The notes beneath the pieces were generated by a model. The model saw only the letters and a program-made list of their open reading frames with translations. It made no database searches and was not told the origin of the DNA. The position numbers and the translations under genes were made by a program. 64,000 nt of DNA, taken from positions 1,499-65,498 of the forward strand of contig JBFYKH010000071.1 of assembly GCA_041306075.1 (NCBI GenBank), in the 5' to 3' direction. The stretch is from Candidatus Altiarchaeota archaeon. Lineage in GTDB: Archaea > Altiarchaeota > Altiarchaeia > IMC4 > SCGC-AAA252-I15. Positions 43,208-50,208 of the stretch are shown here, in pieces (the stretch's first letter is position 1; each line of letters begins with the position of its first letter).

Positions 43208-43567
43208 ATGGAGCTCGAGCTCCTCCACGGGGGCGCGGAAGTCGAGGAGGACCTGAAGCTCCTAGTCCGGCTCGGCCTCGCCGGGAAGGCGAAGGGCGTC
43301 GTCTACGCCACGGAGGCCGTCGACCAGCCGCTCACCGAGAAGCAGCTTGCGGAGGTCGAGGACCACGTCCTCGGCCAGGAGGAGGCGAGGGACTTCCGGC
43401 GGCTCATGGGGCTCTCAGGCGGCCTCAGGAAGGAGGCCGTCGCGGGGGAGGAGCCGCCCAAGCTGAATGGCCCCGACGAGGCCACCGTGAAAAAGTACGC
43501 GAAGAGCTTCCTCGACGTGTCCGAGATTGCCATGCGGCAGCGGGGGAGCAAGGCGGGTGGGGGATGA
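43208..43567 (+). CDS. Small hypothetical protein, possibly winged-helix. It may start at the upstream GTG at 43136
   Basis: It is the real C-terminal part of the artefactual ORF 42425-43567. Its stop overlaps the start of the downstream lipoprotein gene (ATGA). Confidence 0.4.
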   Translation: MELELLHGGAEVEEDLKLLVRLGLAGKAKGVVYATEAVDQPLTEKQLAEVEDHVLGQEEARDFRRLMGLSGGLRKEAVAGEEPPKLNGPDEATVKKYAKSFLDVSEIAMRQRGSKAGGG

Positions 43568-45198
43568 GGCGGCAGGTCGCTTGTCTCATGCTGCTTTCGG
43601 TCTTCGTCCCCGGCTGCATCATGGGCGGCCAGGTCAGCTGCGACGACGACAACCCCTGCACCTATGATTACCTAACGGACGGCTCATGCTCGCACAGGCC
43701 GCTCTCCGGCCCTGTTGACGGCTGCTTCGGCGCCGGCGGCTGCATGGAGTACTCGTGCTTCGACGGCTCATGCATCCTCCAGAGGCTGATGCAATGCTGC
43801 GGCAACGGCGCCTGCGACGGCGGGGAATCACCGGAGCGATGCCCCTCGGACTGCCAGGCCACATGCCGTGACGGCGAACGAAACCAGGGCGAGCAGGGCG
43901 TCGACTGCGGGGGGCCGTGCGGCCCCTGCGAATCCGAGCGGGCCAACTACCTGCGGAAGCTGGGGGAACTCAGGACCCAGTGGCAGGCGTCGGCATCCAA
44001 CTACACAGCGGCCCTAAGGGAGTACGAGGTGGGACGGAACGCCACTCTGCTCATGTCCGCGGCGCTCACCTCCTACGGCGAGTCCGAGAGGATAAGGGGC
44101 GTCCTCGACCGCGCAATCATACCCCGCGAGAACGCGCGGCTCCGCTTGATGTTCAACGACACGCTCAGCACGTACCTCTCCGCCCTCGAGGCGATGTCGA
44201 AGTACGCGGCCTCTGGCAGGGACGTCAACCGCCGGGAGGCGAACCGCCTCTCCGCCCTGGCGTTCGGGCTCGACCGCGACTTCGTCCGCGAATTCAACAG
44301 CGCGGTCGACGAAGTCAACAGGATGGAGCTAGGGTGCGTCAACTTCGTCCAGGACCCTGGTGAGGAGGGAGTCGACTGCGGCGGCCAGTGCAGGACACCT
44401 TGCGAGACTACGTTCAACGTCACCAAGCGAGTCACCGTGAGGATAGCGGACGGCCCAGCCAAGCTGACGGTCAACGTCAGCTCCCCGGCCATCAACTATC
44501 CCCCCCAGCAGAGGCTCATCGCAAGCTCGCTTGAACCTGAGCCGGACCGGGTGTCGAAGGACCAGGAAGGCAACGTCAACTACGAGTACTACCTCGACAT
44601 GCCGGCTTACGGAATCACCGACCTATACATCACGCAGACCCTCAGGTTCAAGAGGGCCGGATGGCCTGCGAAGTCGGCTTCCGCATACGAGAGCCCCCTC
44701 TACCTCCAAGGCAACAACTACAGCGCCCTGTCGGCGGACATATGCCGCGAAGCCGGGATAATCCGCTCGGGCGTCAACTCCACCCCCGAGTACCTGATGG
44801 CAGCCGAGGAGTGGATGAACCGGAACATCGCATACGAGCTCAACCACGAGGAACTCGGCGCCCAGTACTGCTACGCCAGCCGCCGGGGGGCGTGCGACGA
44901 GCAGGCCGACCTCTACGTGTCGCTGATGCGCTGCAATGGCGTGCCTTCCAGGCGGGTGACGGGCTCCCTCGTCAACGGAAGCCATCTCGGCGGCCACGCG
45001 TGGGCGGAATACTACGACGGCGGATGGGTGTACGTGGACCCCTCGGCAAGGCGGAGGGAGCAGGCCTTCACATTCGACAACAAGCACGTCGCCGCGTGCG
45101 TCGGCGAAGGCGCATACAACTGCGGAGTAGGCTACTACTACACGTACGCGAAGAAGCGGCCGAAGATAGAGATAACCGAGCGGACGTACATGCAGTGA
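43564..45198 (+). CDS. Lipoprotein with two Cys-rich modules and a C-terminal transglutaminase-like cysteine-protease domain
   Basis: Lipobox-like LSVFVPGC. Duplicated G-(E/Q)-GVDCGG-x-C-x-x-C-E modules. Transglutaminase core pattern (YCYASRRGACDEQADLYVSLMRCNGVPSRRVTG ... HAWAEYYDGGWVYVDPS). Confidence 0.7.
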   Translation: MRRQVACLMLLSVFVPGCIMGGQVSCDDDNPCTYDYLTDGSCSHRPLSGPVDGCFGAGGCMEYSCFDGSCILQRLMQCCGNGACDGGESPERCPSDCQATCRDGERNQGEQGVDCGGPCGPCESERANYLRKLGELRTQWQASASNYTAALREYEVGRNATLLMSAALTSYGESERIRGVLDRAIIPRENARLRLMFNDTLSTYLSALEAMSKYAASGRDVNRREANRLSALAFGLDRDFVREFNSAVDEVNRMELGCVNFVQDPGEEGVDCGGQCRTPCETTFNVTKRVTVRIADGPAKLTVNVSSPAINYPPQQRLIASSLEPEPDRVSKDQEGNVNYEYYLDMPAYGITDLYITQTLRFKRAGWPAKSASAYESPLYLQGNNYSALSADICREAGIIRSGVNSTPEYLMAAEEWMNRNIAYELNHEELGAQYCYASRRGACDEQADLYVSLMRCNGVPSRRVTGSLVNGSHLGGHAWAEYYDGGWVYVDPSARRREQAFTFDNKHVAACVGEGAYNCGVGYYYTYAKKRPKIEITERTYMQ

Positions 45199-45229: not shown

Positions 45230-45748
45230 ATGGCACTCTACGGCTTCCGATGGTTCGACAAGAGCCTCGCAGGCTGCGCGGTATTCATGCTTAAGGAGGA
45301 CGTTAACGAGCTCAAAGGCCACGGCATAACCGCGGTCGTGTCGCTGCAGGATTTGGCCGAGACCAGGGATGCATGCCTGGAAGGCGGCCTGAAGCGCATA
45401 GTACTGCCGCTTGCGGGCGGCGAGTTGCCGGGCGAGGAGATGCGCACATCCTTCCTCGACTTCGTCAGGGGGGAGGCAGCAGCCGGCGGGAAGACTGTGG
45501 TGCACTGCGCCGGGGGGACGTGGAGGACGGCCCTGATGGGCGCGTACTGGCTGATAGAGAACGGCTCCACGGCGGAGGAGGCGGTGGAACGCGTCAGGTA
45601 CGTAATGCAACGCTACCAGCTAGACGGCCTAAGGGGATTCGCCCTAAAGAAGGCAGGGGAGCGGGCGTGCATCGAGGATGGCTTGAGGAAAGTGGCGCCA
45701 GCAGGCGACCAGGCCGGCAACCAAGAGCCTAAAACGGAAAAACACTGA
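45230..45748 (+). CDS. Dual-specificity/tyrosine protein phosphatase-like protein
   Basis: CX5R P-loop (VHCAGGTWRT). Confidence 0.7.
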   Translation: MALYGFRWFDKSLAGCAVFMLKEDVNELKGHGITAVVSLQDLAETRDACLEGGLKRIVLPLAGGELPGEEMRTSFLDFVRGEAAAGGKTVVHCAGGTWRTALMGAYWLIENGSTAEEAVERVRYVMQRYQLDGLRGFALKKAGERACIEDGLRKVAPAGDQAGNQEPKTEKH

Positions 45749-45808: not shown

Positions 45809-46477
45809 ATGAAATGGAGGCTTTTCAGGCGGCAAGGCGGCTCCGAGGATGAGAAGGCCGTCCCGCCCGAGATGCTGCCGGCACCCCTTGAAGACCTGGA
45901 AGGAAGGGTCGATGCAGCCATCACCGACTACAAGGAGCGAGCGACGAAGACGGGCTCACGCATGATAAACATCGTCCCCGAAGCGTACCAGGACCACGTC
46001 CGGCTCCTGGCCCGGATAGCGTACCCTGCCAAGAACAAGGGGAGGAACGCCGGCGATTTCGAGGACGCGGTGGCGTTGAACTGGCTCGTCAAAGTCAGCC
46101 TCTTCAAATCCATCGGGCAGCAGTGGGGCCTCCATGAAGCCAGGGCTGTTGGGTCGGATGAGGCGAAGTCCGGCCTCGCGCTCACGAAGTCGGCATCCCT
46201 CTTCGCGTTCTCCGCCCCGGACGCGGCGAAGAAGAGGAGGATGATGTACGACCGCATCTCGGAGCGGGAGGCGTCGACCATGCCCAAGGACTTCACGGCG
46301 TCGCTGCCAGGCGGCGTGGAGGTAGGCTCCAAAATAATCGTGCCATCCTACCAGTTCCACTCATCCACGGTCATCGAGATGATGGCATCCGGGAAGGCCG
46401 GCGACGTCTCACAGGAAAAGAGCGTCCAGGACATGCGGCGCACGTTCCTCGCGGTCGACAGGAAGACGATGCTATAG
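45809..46477 (+). CDS. Hypothetical protein
   Basis: 222-aa ORF with protein-like composition. No family recognised. Confidence 0.45.
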   Translation: MKWRLFRRQGGSEDEKAVPPEMLPAPLEDLEGRVDAAITDYKERATKTGSRMINIVPEAYQDHVRLLARIAYPAKNKGRNAGDFEDAVALNWLVKVSLFKSIGQQWGLHEARAVGSDEAKSGLALTKSASLFAFSAPDAAKKRRMMYDRISEREASTMPKDFTASLPGGVEVGSKIIVPSYQFHSSTVIEMMASGKAGDVSQEKSVQDMRRTFLAVDRKTML

Positions 46478-46984
46478 GCGCATCCTGTCCACGAGGTAGT
46501 AAGTGATGTCGCACTCCTCGTCGACTATCGCGTATATCATGTCCTTGTTCACGTTCTTGGCGAGGCGGAGGGCGCGGGCCATCTCCGGGAAGCTGCACGT
46601 GTACTCCTCCGGGACGACGTGGACGAGGTACCTGCTGTGCCCCTTCCCCACGGCCTCCCCGCGCTCGTACAGCCTGAAGTCGGTGCCGAACTTGAGGCCG
46701 CTCCTAACCATCATGCCCCGCTCGCGCAGGTCCTTGTAGACCAGGTACTTGTTGTAGAACTCCTCCTCCTTCGCGGAGCCGAGCTTCACGACCTCCTCGA
46801 ACGACAGGGCGTCCTTGCCTTTGACAATTTCCATCTTCCCGGTCTCCAGGAGGTAGGCGGCCTCTATGATGGACAGGACGAGGGCCTTTTCCTCCATCTC
46901 CCCGTATCCCTTCTCCTTCAGCTGGCTCTTCAGGTCCCCGTCGCCGACCAAGACCTTCGTCCCAGACAATATCCCGGCAGCCAT
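46472..46984 (-). CDS. endA: tRNA-splicing endonuclease EndA (short, homotetramer-type)
   Basis: 170 aa. C-terminal catalytic pattern (GxKFGxDFxLY ... HSRYLVHVV ... K). Confidence 0.8.
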   Translation of the reverse strand: MAAGILSGTKVLVGDGDLKSQLKEKGYGEMEEKALVLSIIEAAYLLETGKMEIVKGKDALSFEEVVKLGSAKEEEFYNKYLVYKDLRERGMMVRSGLKFGTDFRLYERGEAVGKGHSRYLVHVVPEEYTCSFPEMARALRLAKNVNKDMIYAIVDEECDITYYLVDRMRL

Positions 46985-47080
46985 CCTACGGAGGTATTAT
47001 TCCGCCTACGCGATTATATAACGGAATGGCAGAGAAGACGTCCGAAGCCGTGAAGCCGAGGGGCGGCGTCAGGTGATAAT

Positions 47081-47857
47081 GTGCCGTCAGTGCCCACGCT
47101 CGAGGAGATGGGGGTCGCGGGCCTCGTTCCGGAAGAGAAGCCTGATGTGAAGGCGTCTGCGCCCGAGGACGCGCAAGCTGGCGAGGATTACGCCTTCCTG
47201 AACGGCATGCTATTCCTCTCGTTCGTCGCGCCAGCCCTGTTCGCGAAGCTCATGGGCTGGCCGCTCGCCACGTTCCACCAGTTCGTCTTCGTATGGGTAC
47301 ATGAGGCGGGCCACGGATTCTTCGGCCTCCTCGGGAACCGTGTCGTAGCGTCGGCGGCGGGGACGTTCAACGAGCTCCTGTTCACCCTCGTCCCAGCCGC
47401 CATCTGCCTCAGGGACCGGCGGGCCGTCCTCGGAGGCCTCGTCCTCCTGATGTGCGCGGGCCTAAGCGTACAGCATGCCGGATGGTACATGATGAGCGCG
47501 GAGCTCCCGTACGGATACGGCTTCGGCGGCATCAAGATGACGCCAGAGAGCCACGACTGGTCGGTGATATTCAGGGAACTCGGCTTCCTCAGGCAGTCGT
47601 ACGCGATAGGCCAGGCGACCGCAGAGGCAGGCCATGCGCTGGCGGTGATATTCCTCATCGCATCCTTGCTCGGTGCGGTACCGACGCTGTACGGCTGGCG
47701 GCCCGGAAGGTTATTCGACATAGTCTCGCCGTCATCGCTGGCCGCCCTCCTATACCTCCTCCTGTCCGGCTCAAGCCTGCTGGAAATCTCCATAGCCTTG
47801 CTGTTCACGCTCCCCCTCGCCTACCGCATACTCCTTAAATCCCGCCCTTCCGATTAG
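47081..47857 (+). CDS. Polytopic membrane protein with an HExxH (HEAGH) motif in a TM helix: putative intramembrane metalloprotease-like protein
   Basis: 258 aa. HEAGHGFFG in the TM region, a later SHDW motif and about 6 TM helices. Confidence 0.55.
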   Translation: MPSVPTLEEMGVAGLVPEEKPDVKASAPEDAQAGEDYAFLNGMLFLSFVAPALFAKLMGWPLATFHQFVFVWVHEAGHGFFGLLGNRVVASAAGTFNELLFTLVPAAICLRDRRAVLGGLVLLMCAGLSVQHAGWYMMSAELPYGYGFGGIKMTPESHDWSVIFRELGFLRQSYAIGQATAEAGHALAVIFLIASLLGAVPTLYGWRPGRLFDIVSPSSLAALLYLLLSGSSLLEISIALLFTLPLAYRILLKSRPSD

Positions 47858-47862
47858 TCAAT

Positions 47863-48411
47863 ATGGAACCGGCGCTGTTGGCGGCATCGGTGGCGGTCGC
47901 CACCTTAGCGGGCGGGGCGTTCTCCGCGCTCGTAATGCGGCGCCTCGGCTTCTCGCGCGTCCTCCGTCTGATACGGCTCCCCCTCATCTTGTGGCTTATC
48001 GCCGCCGCGGCCGACTTCACAGCGACTGCCGAGGCGGCGGTCGCGAACCCGCTACTGGAGGCTAACCCGTACATACGTTACGCCGTCGCCGCCTACGGTG
48101 GCTTGGGGCTGGCGGCGTTCGCCTTCCTGTGGGTAGTCTCCTGGCTGGCGCTCGCCATGCTCCTTGAGACCTGCAGGGGGAAGATGCCTGGCAGCGCAGT
48201 CGAATACCTCCAGCTGGCCTTGACCTACACGCTCGCAGCCGGACACCTCCTTGCCTGGGCGGCATGGGCTGGCTACGGCTCCATAGCGGACGGGAGCCCG
48301 CCCCTGTACTACTTCCCCTACGTCCTCTTAGGCGGCGGTTTAGGTGTAATCCACCAGGCTGCCAGGAAAAGGCCACACGAACCCCCGGGGCCGAATCATC
48401 GCCCAGCATGA
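47863..48411 (+). CDS. Hypothetical polytopic membrane protein
   Basis: 182 aa, about 5 TM helices. Its stop overlaps the next gene's start. Confidence 0.45.
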   Translation: MEPALLAASVAVATLAGGAFSALVMRRLGFSRVLRLIRLPLILWLIAAAADFTATAEAAVANPLLEANPYIRYAVAAYGGLGLAAFAFLWVVSWLALAMLLETCRGKMPGSAVEYLQLALTYTLAAGHLLAWAAWAGYGSIADGSPPLYYFPYVLLGGGLGVIHQAARKRPHEPPGPNHRPA

Positions 48412-49184
48412 TATTTACCCTTGTGATTCGTATATCCCGGGTGGACGAGTACTGGTCAGACTACTACTACGACCGCCACGCCGATATCAATCAGCTGGCC
48501 ATGGTCGTCCTGGTGCTGCCGACCGTAATCCTAACCCTCATGGGCCAGAGAATAGACCTCTACTTCGCGCTCGTGTCGACCTTGTTCCACGAGGCGGGCC
48601 ACATACTCGTCCAAATCTTCACATCGGACCGCACCGTCATAGCCGCGGCGGGAACAGCCACCCAGGCGGCGGTCACGGTCTTGCCTTCGCTATACCTCAT
48701 CCGAGACCGAAGGACGCATGCCGCAGCCGCCGCATTCCTCATGTGCGCCTCGGCACTCGTCATGGCGTCCGGCCACTACATGAGCACCGCGCTCACGATG
48801 GACGGCGTCAACTACCTGGGGCAGAAGCTCACGGCATCAAGGCATGACTGGACCCAAATATACCACTCCTTCGGGATACCCCTCGCAGACGCCCAGCCAA
48901 ACGGCAGAATCATCGAGACAGCCGGCGAGGCCGCGGCCTGGGTATTCCTCGCCTCCTCGCTCCTCTTGTACGCCTCCAGCCTCCTGTTGCCCGGGCGCCT
49001 GAACATGGCGCACGCCGTCACAGCCTCATCAATCCCGTTCCTGGCATACTCCCTCGAATACGGCGACCCGTCAGCCAGGTACTCGTGCATCCTTCTTTTG
49101 GCCGCTGGCGCGCTCGCCTCGATCCTGCCGGCGGCGGCCGGGCGGCTGAAGAGGGCTGATGTTTTATACCCGCCGTCTCTTTGA
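48408..49184 (+). CDS. Paralog of 47081-47857: membrane protein with HEAGH and RHDW motifs
   Basis: The start was set at MIFTLVI (ATGA overlap with the upstream stop). It carries HEAGHILVQ and ASRHDW in positions equivalent to the first copy. Confidence 0.55.
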   Translation: MIFTLVIRISRVDEYWSDYYYDRHADINQLAMVVLVLPTVILTLMGQRIDLYFALVSTLFHEAGHILVQIFTSDRTVIAAAGTATQAAVTVLPSLYLIRDRRTHAAAAAFLMCASALVMASGHYMSTALTMDGVNYLGQKLTASRHDWTQIYHSFGIPLADAQPNGRIIETAGEAAAWVFLASSLLLYASSLLLPGRLNMAHAVTASSIPFLAYSLEYGDPSARYSCILLLAAGALASILPAAAGRLKRADVLYPPSL

Positions 49185-49233
49185 TTACCCAGGGCATACT
49201 CTTCAGCGGCCCATTAGGCGCACGGCCACAGAC

Positions 49234-50208
49234 ATGAACATTCTAGGACTCGAAGGGACCGCCCATACCCTGGGCGTGGGTATAGTCGACGGGGGATTCA
49301 AGCCTCTCGCCGACGTGAGGAACCAGTACGTCCCAGAGTCCGGGGGGATACACCCCAGGGACGCGAGCCAACACATGAGCGCCGTGATGGGGGAGACGCT
49401 CGAACAGGCCCTCCATGAGGCGGGCCTCGGGATGCCGGACATAGACCTCGTCTCATTCAGCCGCGGCCCAGGCCTCGGCCCATGCCTGAGGACGGTGGCG
49501 ACCGCGGCCAGGACGCTAGCCCTCTACCACCGGAAACCCATCGTCGCAGTCAACCACTGCATAGCCCACATAGAGGTCGGCAAGGTGCTCAGCGGATTCA
49601 CCGACCCCCTCGTCCTATACGCGAGCGGCGCCAACAGCCAGGTCATCAAGCGGAGGGACGGCCGCTACAGGGTCTTCGGCGAGACGCTCGACATCGGAGT
49701 CGGCAACATGCTCGACAAGTTCGGAAGGGAGGTCGGCCTCGCCCACCCCGCCGGCCCGAAGATAGAGGCCCTCGCGGCGTCCGGCCGCGAACTCATCGAA
49801 TTGCCCTACGTGGTGAAGGGCACGGACATGAGCTTCAGCGGCATACTCACGTCGGCCATCCGCCTACACCGGCAGGGGAGGCGGCTCGAGGACCTGTGCT
49901 ACAGCCTCCAGGAGACCTGCTTCGCAATGCTCTGCGAGGTCTCGGAGCGCGCGCTCGCGCACATCAAGGCCGGGGAGGTCCTGCTCGCAGGAGGCGTCGG
50001 ATACAACAGGCGCCTCCAGGACATGCTCCGCCAGGTCGCCGAAGAACACGGCGCCAGGTTCGACTACCCCGGGAAATACATGGGCGACAACGGCGTGATG
50101 ATAGCGATGACCGGCCTCAAGATGCACAACGCCGGAGTCATGATGAGGCCGGAGGAGGCGATGGTCGTCGCGGACGAGCGCACAGACGACGTCGAAGTCA
50201 ACTGGTGA
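49234..50208 (+). CDS. kae1: tRNA N6-adenosine threonylcarbamoyltransferase Kae1 (KEOPS catalytic subunit)
   Basis: The start was trimmed to MNILGLEGTAHTLGVG. Kae1/TsaD motifs are present (HCIAHIE, GGVGYN, metal-binding His pair). Confidence 0.9.
   Translation: MNILGLEGTAHTLGVGIVDGGFKPLADVRNQYVPESGGIHPRDASQHMSAVMGETLEQALHEAGLGMPDIDLVSFSRGPGLGPCLRTVATAARTLALYHRKPIVAVNHCIAHIEVGKVLSGFTDPLVLYASGANSQVIKRRDGRYRVFGETLDIGVGNMLDKFGREVGLAHPAGPKIEALAASGRELIELPYVVKGTDMSFSGILTSAIRLHRQGRRLEDLCYSLQETCFAMLCEVSERALAHIKAGEVLLAGGVGYNRRLQDMLRQVAEEHGARFDYPGKYMGDNGVMIAMTGLKMHNAGVMMRPEEAMVVADERTDDVEVNW

Follow-up and report, generated by a model that had tools for sequence, protein, structure and literature searches.

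Three consecutive genes, here called A, B and C, lie between the genes for the tRNA-splicing endonuclease EndA and for Kae1/TsaD in a 64,000-nucleotide stretch of contig JBFYKH010000071.1 (positions 1,499 to 65,498; assembly GCA_041306075.1) of a Candidatus Altiarchaeota archaeon, referred to below as the window. The outer genes, A and C, encode paralogous membrane proteins with HExGH and HDW motifs that are near-invariant across their family, for which neither an entry in the libraries searched nor a homologous solved fold was found. The reading that we favour, with modest confidence, sees A and C as diverged paralogs within an uncatalogued superfamily of membrane proteins with about seven helices, acting as membrane-embedded metal (zinc) hydrolases, probably peptidases, and the trio as a lineage-specific arrangement and not a conserved system.

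Paralogy and conserved motifs of A and C

The original prediction, made from the letters of this DNA, described the outer genes as paralogs sharing HEAGH and (S/R)HDW motifs. BLASTP supported this, aligning the products of A and C at 31% identity over 159 amino acids (E = 7e-18), and a profile built from a 15-sequence alignment of the A family scored C at 1.3e-70. No further copy of A or C was found within the window.

A word-based search of 5.8 billion proteins returned 17 matches for A, and an exhaustive search of 1.84 billion representatives with the 15-sequence profile yielded 487 relatives at E<=1e-3, 17 of them at E<=1e-30. The core group of the family comprises 17 members, of which the named ones come from Altiarchaeota metagenome-assembled genomes (MAGs). 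All named members of the family are annotated as "hypothetical protein" and belong to Candidatus Altiarchaeales IMC4, to other Altiarchaeota MAGs and to one Bdellovibrionota MAG; the latter provides the sole named sequence, a bacterial one, among the distant relatives, which are hypothetical proteins of about 210 amino acids. No description of an HExGH...HDW family was found in the literature.

Conservation was counted in an alignment of 146 sequences, using the residue numbers of A. The HExGH motif was kept at H74 in 143 sequences, E75 in 142, G77 in 134 and H78 in 141, and the HDW motif at H158 in 141, D159 in 144 and W160 in 138. Two other columns were near-invariant (G94, 144/146; Y136, 142/146), and position 98 was occupied by Gln in 90 sequences and by Glu in 53, with Glu in A and the majority residue, Gln, in C. 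The family signature can thus be written as H-E-x-G-H ... G-G-(T/S)-x-x-(Q/E) ... Y-(M/I)-x-x-A ... H-D-W. Judged from this alignment, the conservation of the motifs in 146 homologs is beyond chance. The original prediction had named two outcomes that would speak against an enzyme, a poorly conserved HExxH and assignment to a non-enzymatic transporter family. The library scans of the A/C family produced no transporter assignment; with this and the motif conservation, a catalytic metal site withstands both tests.

The core members also share an N-terminal peptide, M-x-x-(V/I)-P-(T/S)-x-(E/K)-E-(L/M)-G-(V/I/L)-x-(D/G)-(W/L)-x-P, behind which lies a charged and variable linker. Besides A it is found in P0002, P0003, P0004, P0013, P0014, P0016, P0024-P0027, P0030, P0032, P0034 and the A homolog of locus L016; C, P0033 and the members with HNH or zinc-ribbon sequences at their N-termini lack it. 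These latter modules, CxxC/HNH-like or of the zinc-ribbon type, occur in P0010 (L006 6001-6990), P0031 and the A homolog of L018 (7752-8693); Pfam scored them as HNH at 6.8e-4 and detected Zn_Ribbon_1 in 7 of the 146 members. AlphaFold2 modelled residues 1-10 of A with a predicted local distance difference test score (pLDDT) of 73 although they form no secondary structure, a hint that the peptide may be docked onto the rest of the protein; a role as pro-segment or in partner binding is conceivable.

By their sequence features, A, B and C are real coding genes. Against the closest relative, L001, the ratio of nonsynonymous to synonymous substitution rates (dN/dS) was 0.19 for A and 0.22 for B, indicating purifying selection on both; for comparison, the values for kae1 and endA were 0.11 and 0.03. 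The C product retains every family-invariant residue, and the GTG start of A aligns with the ATG of an ortholog of 75% identity.

Predicted structure and membrane topology

An AlphaFold2 model of A based on the 15-sequence alignment was all-helical and of high confidence (pLDDT 90.1; predicted template modelling score 0.82). It comprises about seven long helices (residues 28-57, 64-82, 87-110, 113-137, 170-203, 212-228 and 233-253) and a short one at 159-167. As the original prediction had it, the HEAGH motif lies within a hydrophobic helix: the stretch FVFVWV-HEAGH-GFFGLL of A corresponds to helix 64-82. Q/E98 was placed on helix 87-110 and Y136 on helix 113-137, and the short helix begins at D159, right after H158, in the long loop between transmembrane helices 4 and 5 (TM4 and TM5). 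A Foldseek search of the PDB returned no counterpart of the model at E<=1e-3 (best E 0.13), leaving S2P, Ste24 and Rce1 unmatched.

In the core family, segments rich in Lys and Arg were located in loop 3-4 (2.6 Lys plus Arg in four residues; RDRR in both A and C), in loop 5-6 and at the C-terminus, and by the positive-inside rule these would mark the cytoplasmic side. The HDW loop of A is poor in Lys and Arg and is predicted to be outside. Opposite the basic loops, the extracytoplasmic side would include the C-terminus of the HExxH helix, the first third of the following helix with Q/E98, the end of TM4 with Y136, and the HDW loop; all conserved polar residues fall at or near that side. A check whether HExxH and HDW face the same leaflet had been proposed with the original prediction, and in this topology both come out extracytoplasmic. 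Since both are placed on the same predicted side, a single site near the outer leaflet made up of the two motifs is plausible.

Relationship to known metallopeptidase families

None of the three proteins gave a significant match in Pfam, NCBIfam, PADLOC or PHROGs, nor did the 146 homologs in Pfam and NCBIfam or the consensus sequences of both subgroups in Pfam. The families suggested at the outset were M50/site-2 protease, DUF3267 and the CPBP (CAAX protease) family, and membership in them was not borne out by HMMER or by the PDB fold search: PF02163 (M50), DUF3267 (PF11667) and CPBP (PF02517) had no Pfam match to A or C at E<=1, nor to the 146 homologs at E<=0.01.

The site-2 protease/M50 group (PF02163; 3B4R, RseP, SpoIVFB) nevertheless resembles A and C in being small and polytopic, in placing HExxH within a hydrophobic helix with no soluble catalytic domain, and in having a second conserved Asp-containing motif farther downstream. 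One alternative therefore takes A and C for very remote intramembrane proteases of the M50/S2P clan, similar to Peptidase_M50B (PF13398), with D159 in the role of the LDG aspartate. PF13398, a family of about 200 amino acids that also starts with a transmembrane helix plus HExxH, was the only Pfam family to recur, with sub-threshold matches in 4 of the 15 core members and 4 of the 146 superfamily members (best E 7.8e-5). C gave the best of the bit scores shown (17.3 bits, E = 0.004), the others being 14.1-14.3 bits, below the gathering score of 26; Pfam was empty for A and B. Wherever the match range was shown, it covered profile positions 5-40 of 201, that is, the one transmembrane helix and HExxH, and the subgroup consensus sequences did not match. 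Consistent with this alternative, HExxH sits in a hydrophobic helix with a conserved Asp motif some 80 residues on, and a PDB profile search recovered the S2P homolog aq_1964 (9j82), over 19 residues at E = 0.58. The third-ligand motif of M50, NxxPxxxLDG, has no LDG-type equivalent in the A/C family, where the invariant H-D-W might supply the Asp instead, and the S2P core fold was not matched by the model of A. We consider this relationship distinctly unlikely.

The other comparisons also showed partial likeness. DUF3267 and the CPBP/Rce1 CAAX proteases are, like A and C, small polytopic proteins that have their motifs in transmembrane helices, and a metalloprotease function has been proposed or shown for them, but the CPBP motifs EExxxR, FxxxH and HxxxN/D are missing from the A/C alignment and the Rce1 structure was not retrieved. 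Thermolysin (M4) has the spacing HExxH-x19-E, and as in the gluzincins (thermolysin M4, M3) E98 of A is located exactly 20 residues past the second His, within N-E-L. However, this Glu is not conserved in the family, and A and C are helical membrane bundles as opposed to the alpha/beta zincin fold; a gluzincin reading with E98 as third ligand was rejected because Gln is the majority residue at position 98. As to the general features of zincins, HExxH is kept in 141-143 of the 146 homologs, and H158 and D159, candidates for the third ligand, are near-invariant.

Profile searches of the PDB with the 15- and 146-sequence alignments returned only matches at E>=0.28. With the larger alignment, six of the seven matches were zinc peptidases (E 0.3-0.7), aligned through the HExxH helix and including M3 peptidases, aq_1964 and a metzincin, a pattern that is suggestive but not significant. 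The M3 peptidases ranked first among the PDB sequence matches.

Gene neighbourhood and origin of the trio

In the closest relative, L001 (EndA 97.6%, LonB 96%, Kae1 90%, A 75% and B 72% identical), the order is transglutaminase gene, hyp222, endA (minus strand), A, B, kae1; C is lacking, and the stop codon of B is 4 nucleotides from kae1. The arrangement endA-A-B-kae1 devoid of C was found in L001/2/3/10/11/12/19, and endA (minus strand)-A-kae1, with neither B nor C, in L004/5/24, L009, L017, L022, L025, L026 and the P0005 contig, so that at least eight syntenic relatives have A as the only member of the trio; in L004, A overlaps kae1 by 4 nucleotides. A, B and C occur together only in the window, and A plus B in the lineage of one near relative.

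A second contig shows the order endA (minus strand), A (P0003), a gene for 233 amino acids, a gene for 403 amino acids, the A-like P0033, kae1. Read from gene order, at least two genomes have gained or retained a second family copy just upstream of kae1, and the genes that separate the copies are not the same. Recurrence of the cassette thus holds to the extent that A, inserted genes, a second A-like copy and kae1 are found on one other contig, and it does not extend beyond a small sub-clade.

Outside this synteny, A homologs in L006, L007/8, L013, L014 (Altiarchaeales IMC4), L016 and L018 have no endA or kae1 neighbours, and in all non-syntenic relatives A occurs without B and C. No neighbour is common to the non-syntenic loci across lineages, and only the close pair L007/L013 share neighbours; the distant members are singletons in unrelated settings, for example directly after YscD-, YscJ- and SctQ-like genes of a type III secretion-like cluster (P0064, L029 6001-6645) or beside a histidine phosphatase gene.

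C lacks the conserved N-terminal motif of A. Among 5.8 billion proteins, the word-based search returned C itself and no other close relative, and no ortholog above 35% identity was detected. In a neighbour-joining tree, C and P0033 formed separate basal long branches; shared rare states do not unite the two, and each shares some with the A of its own genome (e.g., the RDRR loop). C is clearly a fast-evolving extra copy, evolving much faster than A.

For B, the description as an unrelated protein with about five transmembrane helices agrees with our results: sequence comparison found no relation to A or C, and a low-confidence AlphaFold2 model (pLDDT 54) together with Kyte-Doolittle peaks indicated about five helices. 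Its conserved segment reads ADF(T/S)ATAEAAxANPxxEANPY. Only two further homologs of B turned up in the 5.8 billion proteins (84% and 71% identity), and by this distribution B is a clade-specific young orphan membrane gene.

Recent horizontal acquisition of B and C was considered and rejected, as no compositional signal was found and no flanking direct repeats beyond short matches at chance level. G+C content overall and at third codon positions in A, B and C matches that of the surrounding genes and of the host genome.

The original prediction had proposed an uncharacterised processing system, and in this alternative A, B and C would be a dedicated three-component unit, with two intramembrane proteases around a substrate or regulator B and all three translationally coupled. 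The tight packing of the genes (a 5-nucleotide gap between A and B and a 4-nucleotide overlap between B and C), the same 5-nucleotide spacing 3' of A in L001 and on the P0003 contig, the comparable arrangement of that second genome and the purifying selection on B are in its favour. Against it stands the lack of a conserved gene neighbourhood: C is missing from the closest relative, which retains A and B; in at least eight relatives A is the sole gene of the trio and adjoins kae1; and the two genomes with a second copy do not have the same number or size of intervening genes. Elsewhere the family is represented by single genes in varied settings, and the scarcity of homologs of B and the lack of an ortholog of C also argue against such a system, which we regard as highly improbable.

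Organization of the locus and candidate expression signals

Three consecutive open reading frames (ORFs) on the plus strand were found at the coordinates originally reported (Table 1), in a window with a G+C content of about 62%. A longer ORF for C, starting at 48264 within B, is unsupported. The neighbours named beforehand were confirmed by Pfam as endA, divergent from A, and kae1, downstream of C, whose start was taken as the one aligning with orthologs. Farther neighbours in the window are genes for a transglutaminase-core protein, a DSP-type phosphatase and LonB.

Overlapping stop and start codons had been described throughout the cassette, which holds for the B/C junction (ATGA), the sole true overlap, and not for the other junctions: A and B are separated by a short spacer, and 49 nucleotides lie between the stop of C and the ATG of kae1. 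No RNA was detected at the locus by Rfam.

Table 1. Coordinates of genes, motifs and candidate signals at the A-B-C locus (window numbering)
Feature	Position	Strand	Details
endA (tRNA-splicing endonuclease EndA)	46472-46984	-	Divergent from A; PF01974 1.1e-31, PF02778 5e-17
Candidate palindromic TATA-like box TTATATAA	47014-47021	.	In the 96-nucleotide endA/A divergent intergenic region; from sequence
Shine-Dalgarno-like AGGTGAT	47071-47077	+	Ends 3 nucleotides (AAT, 47078-47080) before the GTG of A
Gene A	47081-47857	+	ORF, 258 amino acids, GTG start; TAG ends at 47857
N-terminal conserved peptide of A	47081-47131	+	Residues 1-17; from alignment
HEAGH of A	47300-47314	+	H74 E75 A76 G77 H78; from sequence
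HDW of A	47552-47560	+	H158 D159 W160 (SHDW, residues 157-160); start of short helix in the TM4-TM5 loop
A/B spacer	47858-47862	+	5 nucleotides, TCAAT
Gene B	47863-48411	+	ORF, 182 amino acids; ATG at 47863
B/C overlap	48408-48411	+	ATGA, stop of B and start of C
Gene C	48408-49184	+	ORF, 258 amino acids; ATG at 48408
HEAGH of C	48588-48602	+	Residues 61-65; from sequence
HDW of C	48843-48851	+	RHDW, residues 145-148; from sequence
TATA-like TTTTATAC	49162-49169	+	Inside the 3' end of C, about 65-72 nucleotides upstream of the kae1 ATG
kae1 (Kae1/TsaD)	49234-50208	+	Downstream of C; PF00814 5.9e-74

The archaeal anti-Shine-Dalgarno consensus is the basis for reading AGGTGAT ahead of A as Shine-Dalgarno-like. 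The palindrome TTATATAA, situated 30-37 nucleotides upstream of the endA ATG and 60-67 nucleotides upstream of the GTG of A, is a candidate for a shared bidirectional archaeal TATA element. A scan for bacterial-type promoters found nothing, as expected in an archaeon.

In six relatives (L001 6378-6408; L004, L009, L017, L025, L026), an A/T-rich box lies about 25-31 nucleotides upstream of the kae1 ATG, within the preceding gene, and TTTTATAC is its counterpart in the window. These boxes suggest a separate promoter for kae1, with A-B-C as a unit apart from it, which further weakens a functional tie of A-B-C to Kae1. A functional link to endA or kae1 was rejected, as the synteny is limited to one clade and kae1 of the relatives has its own TATA-like box; the position of A between them is not evidence of shared function. 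TTTTATAC is flanked by a 14-nucleotide inverted repeat (49140-49153 and 49199-49212; 93% complementary, 45-nucleotide spacer).

On the far side of endA, hyp222 (ending at 46477) and endA (stop codon 46472-46474, minus strand) are convergent, and their 3' ends overlap by 6 nucleotides (46472-46477). Between the transglutaminase-core gene and hyp222 lies a gene for a DSP/PTP-type phosphatase (45230-45748; PF22785, 1.5e-10) that is missing from the otherwise collinear L001 and represents a second window-specific insertion near the cassette. The transglutaminase-core gene (43564-45198) encodes a Cys-rich protein of 544 amino acids with the core at its C-terminus and an N-terminus that resembles a signal or lipobox-type sequence (LSVFVPGC); it is kept upstream across the syntenic clade (L001, L004, L009) at 47-80% identity.

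Proposed activity and significance

A further alternative gives the conserved site a catalytic or metal-binding role other than proteolysis, A and C being metallo-hydrolases or transferases acting on lipid head groups or envelope precursors, or else metal sensors or transport accessories. This would be in keeping with the lack of significant similarity to peptidase families, with a predicted site within the outer leaflet or its interface, and with the preference for Gln at position 98, by which the classic third ligand of gluzincins is missing. Some neighbours of homologs also fit: a CDP-alcohol phosphatidyltransferase gene is divergent from the family homolog in L007 (4563-5995) and L013 (7362-8720), with inositol-1-phosphate synthase nearby in L007/L008, and P0051 (L027 6001-6666) adjoins genes for a PAP2 phosphatase, a cupin and a metallophosphoesterase. 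On the other hand, H-E-x-x-H with an invariant Glu at the second position is overwhelmingly a peptidase/amidase signature, the weak database echoes are all peptidases, and lipid-enzyme neighbours are present in only two of about eight independent settings and are not conserved. A non-proteolytic role appears unlikely.

Several points weigh against A and C being membrane-embedded peptidases in a lineage-specific trio. No significant match to a characterised peptidase family or structure was obtained, and the term peptidase rests on the motif and its conservation. The clustering of H74, H78, H158 and D159 was deduced from the topology and not read from coordinates. The orientation of the N-terminus is ambiguous: provided that helix 64-82 spans the membrane, the positive-inside rule would sooner put the N-terminus outside, but the N-terminal HNH or zinc-ribbon modules of some homologs should be cytoplasmic, which argues for a cytoplasmic N-terminus in at least those proteins. 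The two unrelated settings beside lipid head-group enzymes (CDP-alcohol phosphatidyltransferase and PAP2) would fit a lipid substrate. Lastly, the arrangement of the second contig would be compatible with a functional link between the copies and the intervening genes.

For A and C as membrane-embedded metal hydrolases, the two His of HExGH and either H158 or D159 would hold the metal, E75 would serve as general base, and Y136 and Q/E98 would line a site opening to the outer leaflet or the extracytoplasmic face. A is the conserved copy under purifying selection, fixed by synteny between endA and kae1 in one uncultured archaeal clade, whose only named family-carrying relatives are Altiarchaeota MAGs. 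The A-kae1 junction has repeatedly taken in extra membrane-protein genes, here B as a young orphan and C as a fast-evolving family copy, presumably with altered specificity. A, B and C are probably transcribed as one unit, yet as a lineage-specific elaboration.

More speculatively, and at a strength that we would call doubtful but conceivable, the HExGH...HDW family may represent a separate new clan of polytopic membrane zinc hydrolases, with a helical fold that differs from every solved intramembrane protease and a site at the outer leaflet. The N-terminal peptide of the core members, xx(V/I)P(T/S)xEELG(V/I)x(D/G)(W/L)xP, might then be an autoinhibitory pro-segment or a substrate mimic, and second copies that lack it (C, P0033) could be neofunctionalised enzymes recruited with newborn membrane proteins like B.

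If the family is in truth one of metallohydrolases, it would be a structurally distinct addition to the few membrane-integral HExxH enzymes (S2P, Ste24/HtpX, BlaR1-type), and it would open a way into the processing of envelope or membrane proteins in Altiarchaeota and some bacteria, such as the source of the Bdellovibrionota MAG member. The attractive notion of a conserved three-gene processing system tied to tRNA-modification genes was not borne out; what remains is a modest-sized uncharacterised family whose function is guessed from its motifs, together with a lineage-specific duplication and an orphan gene inserted beside it. The A-kae1 junction is an example of a synteny "hot spot" that gathers young membrane genes.

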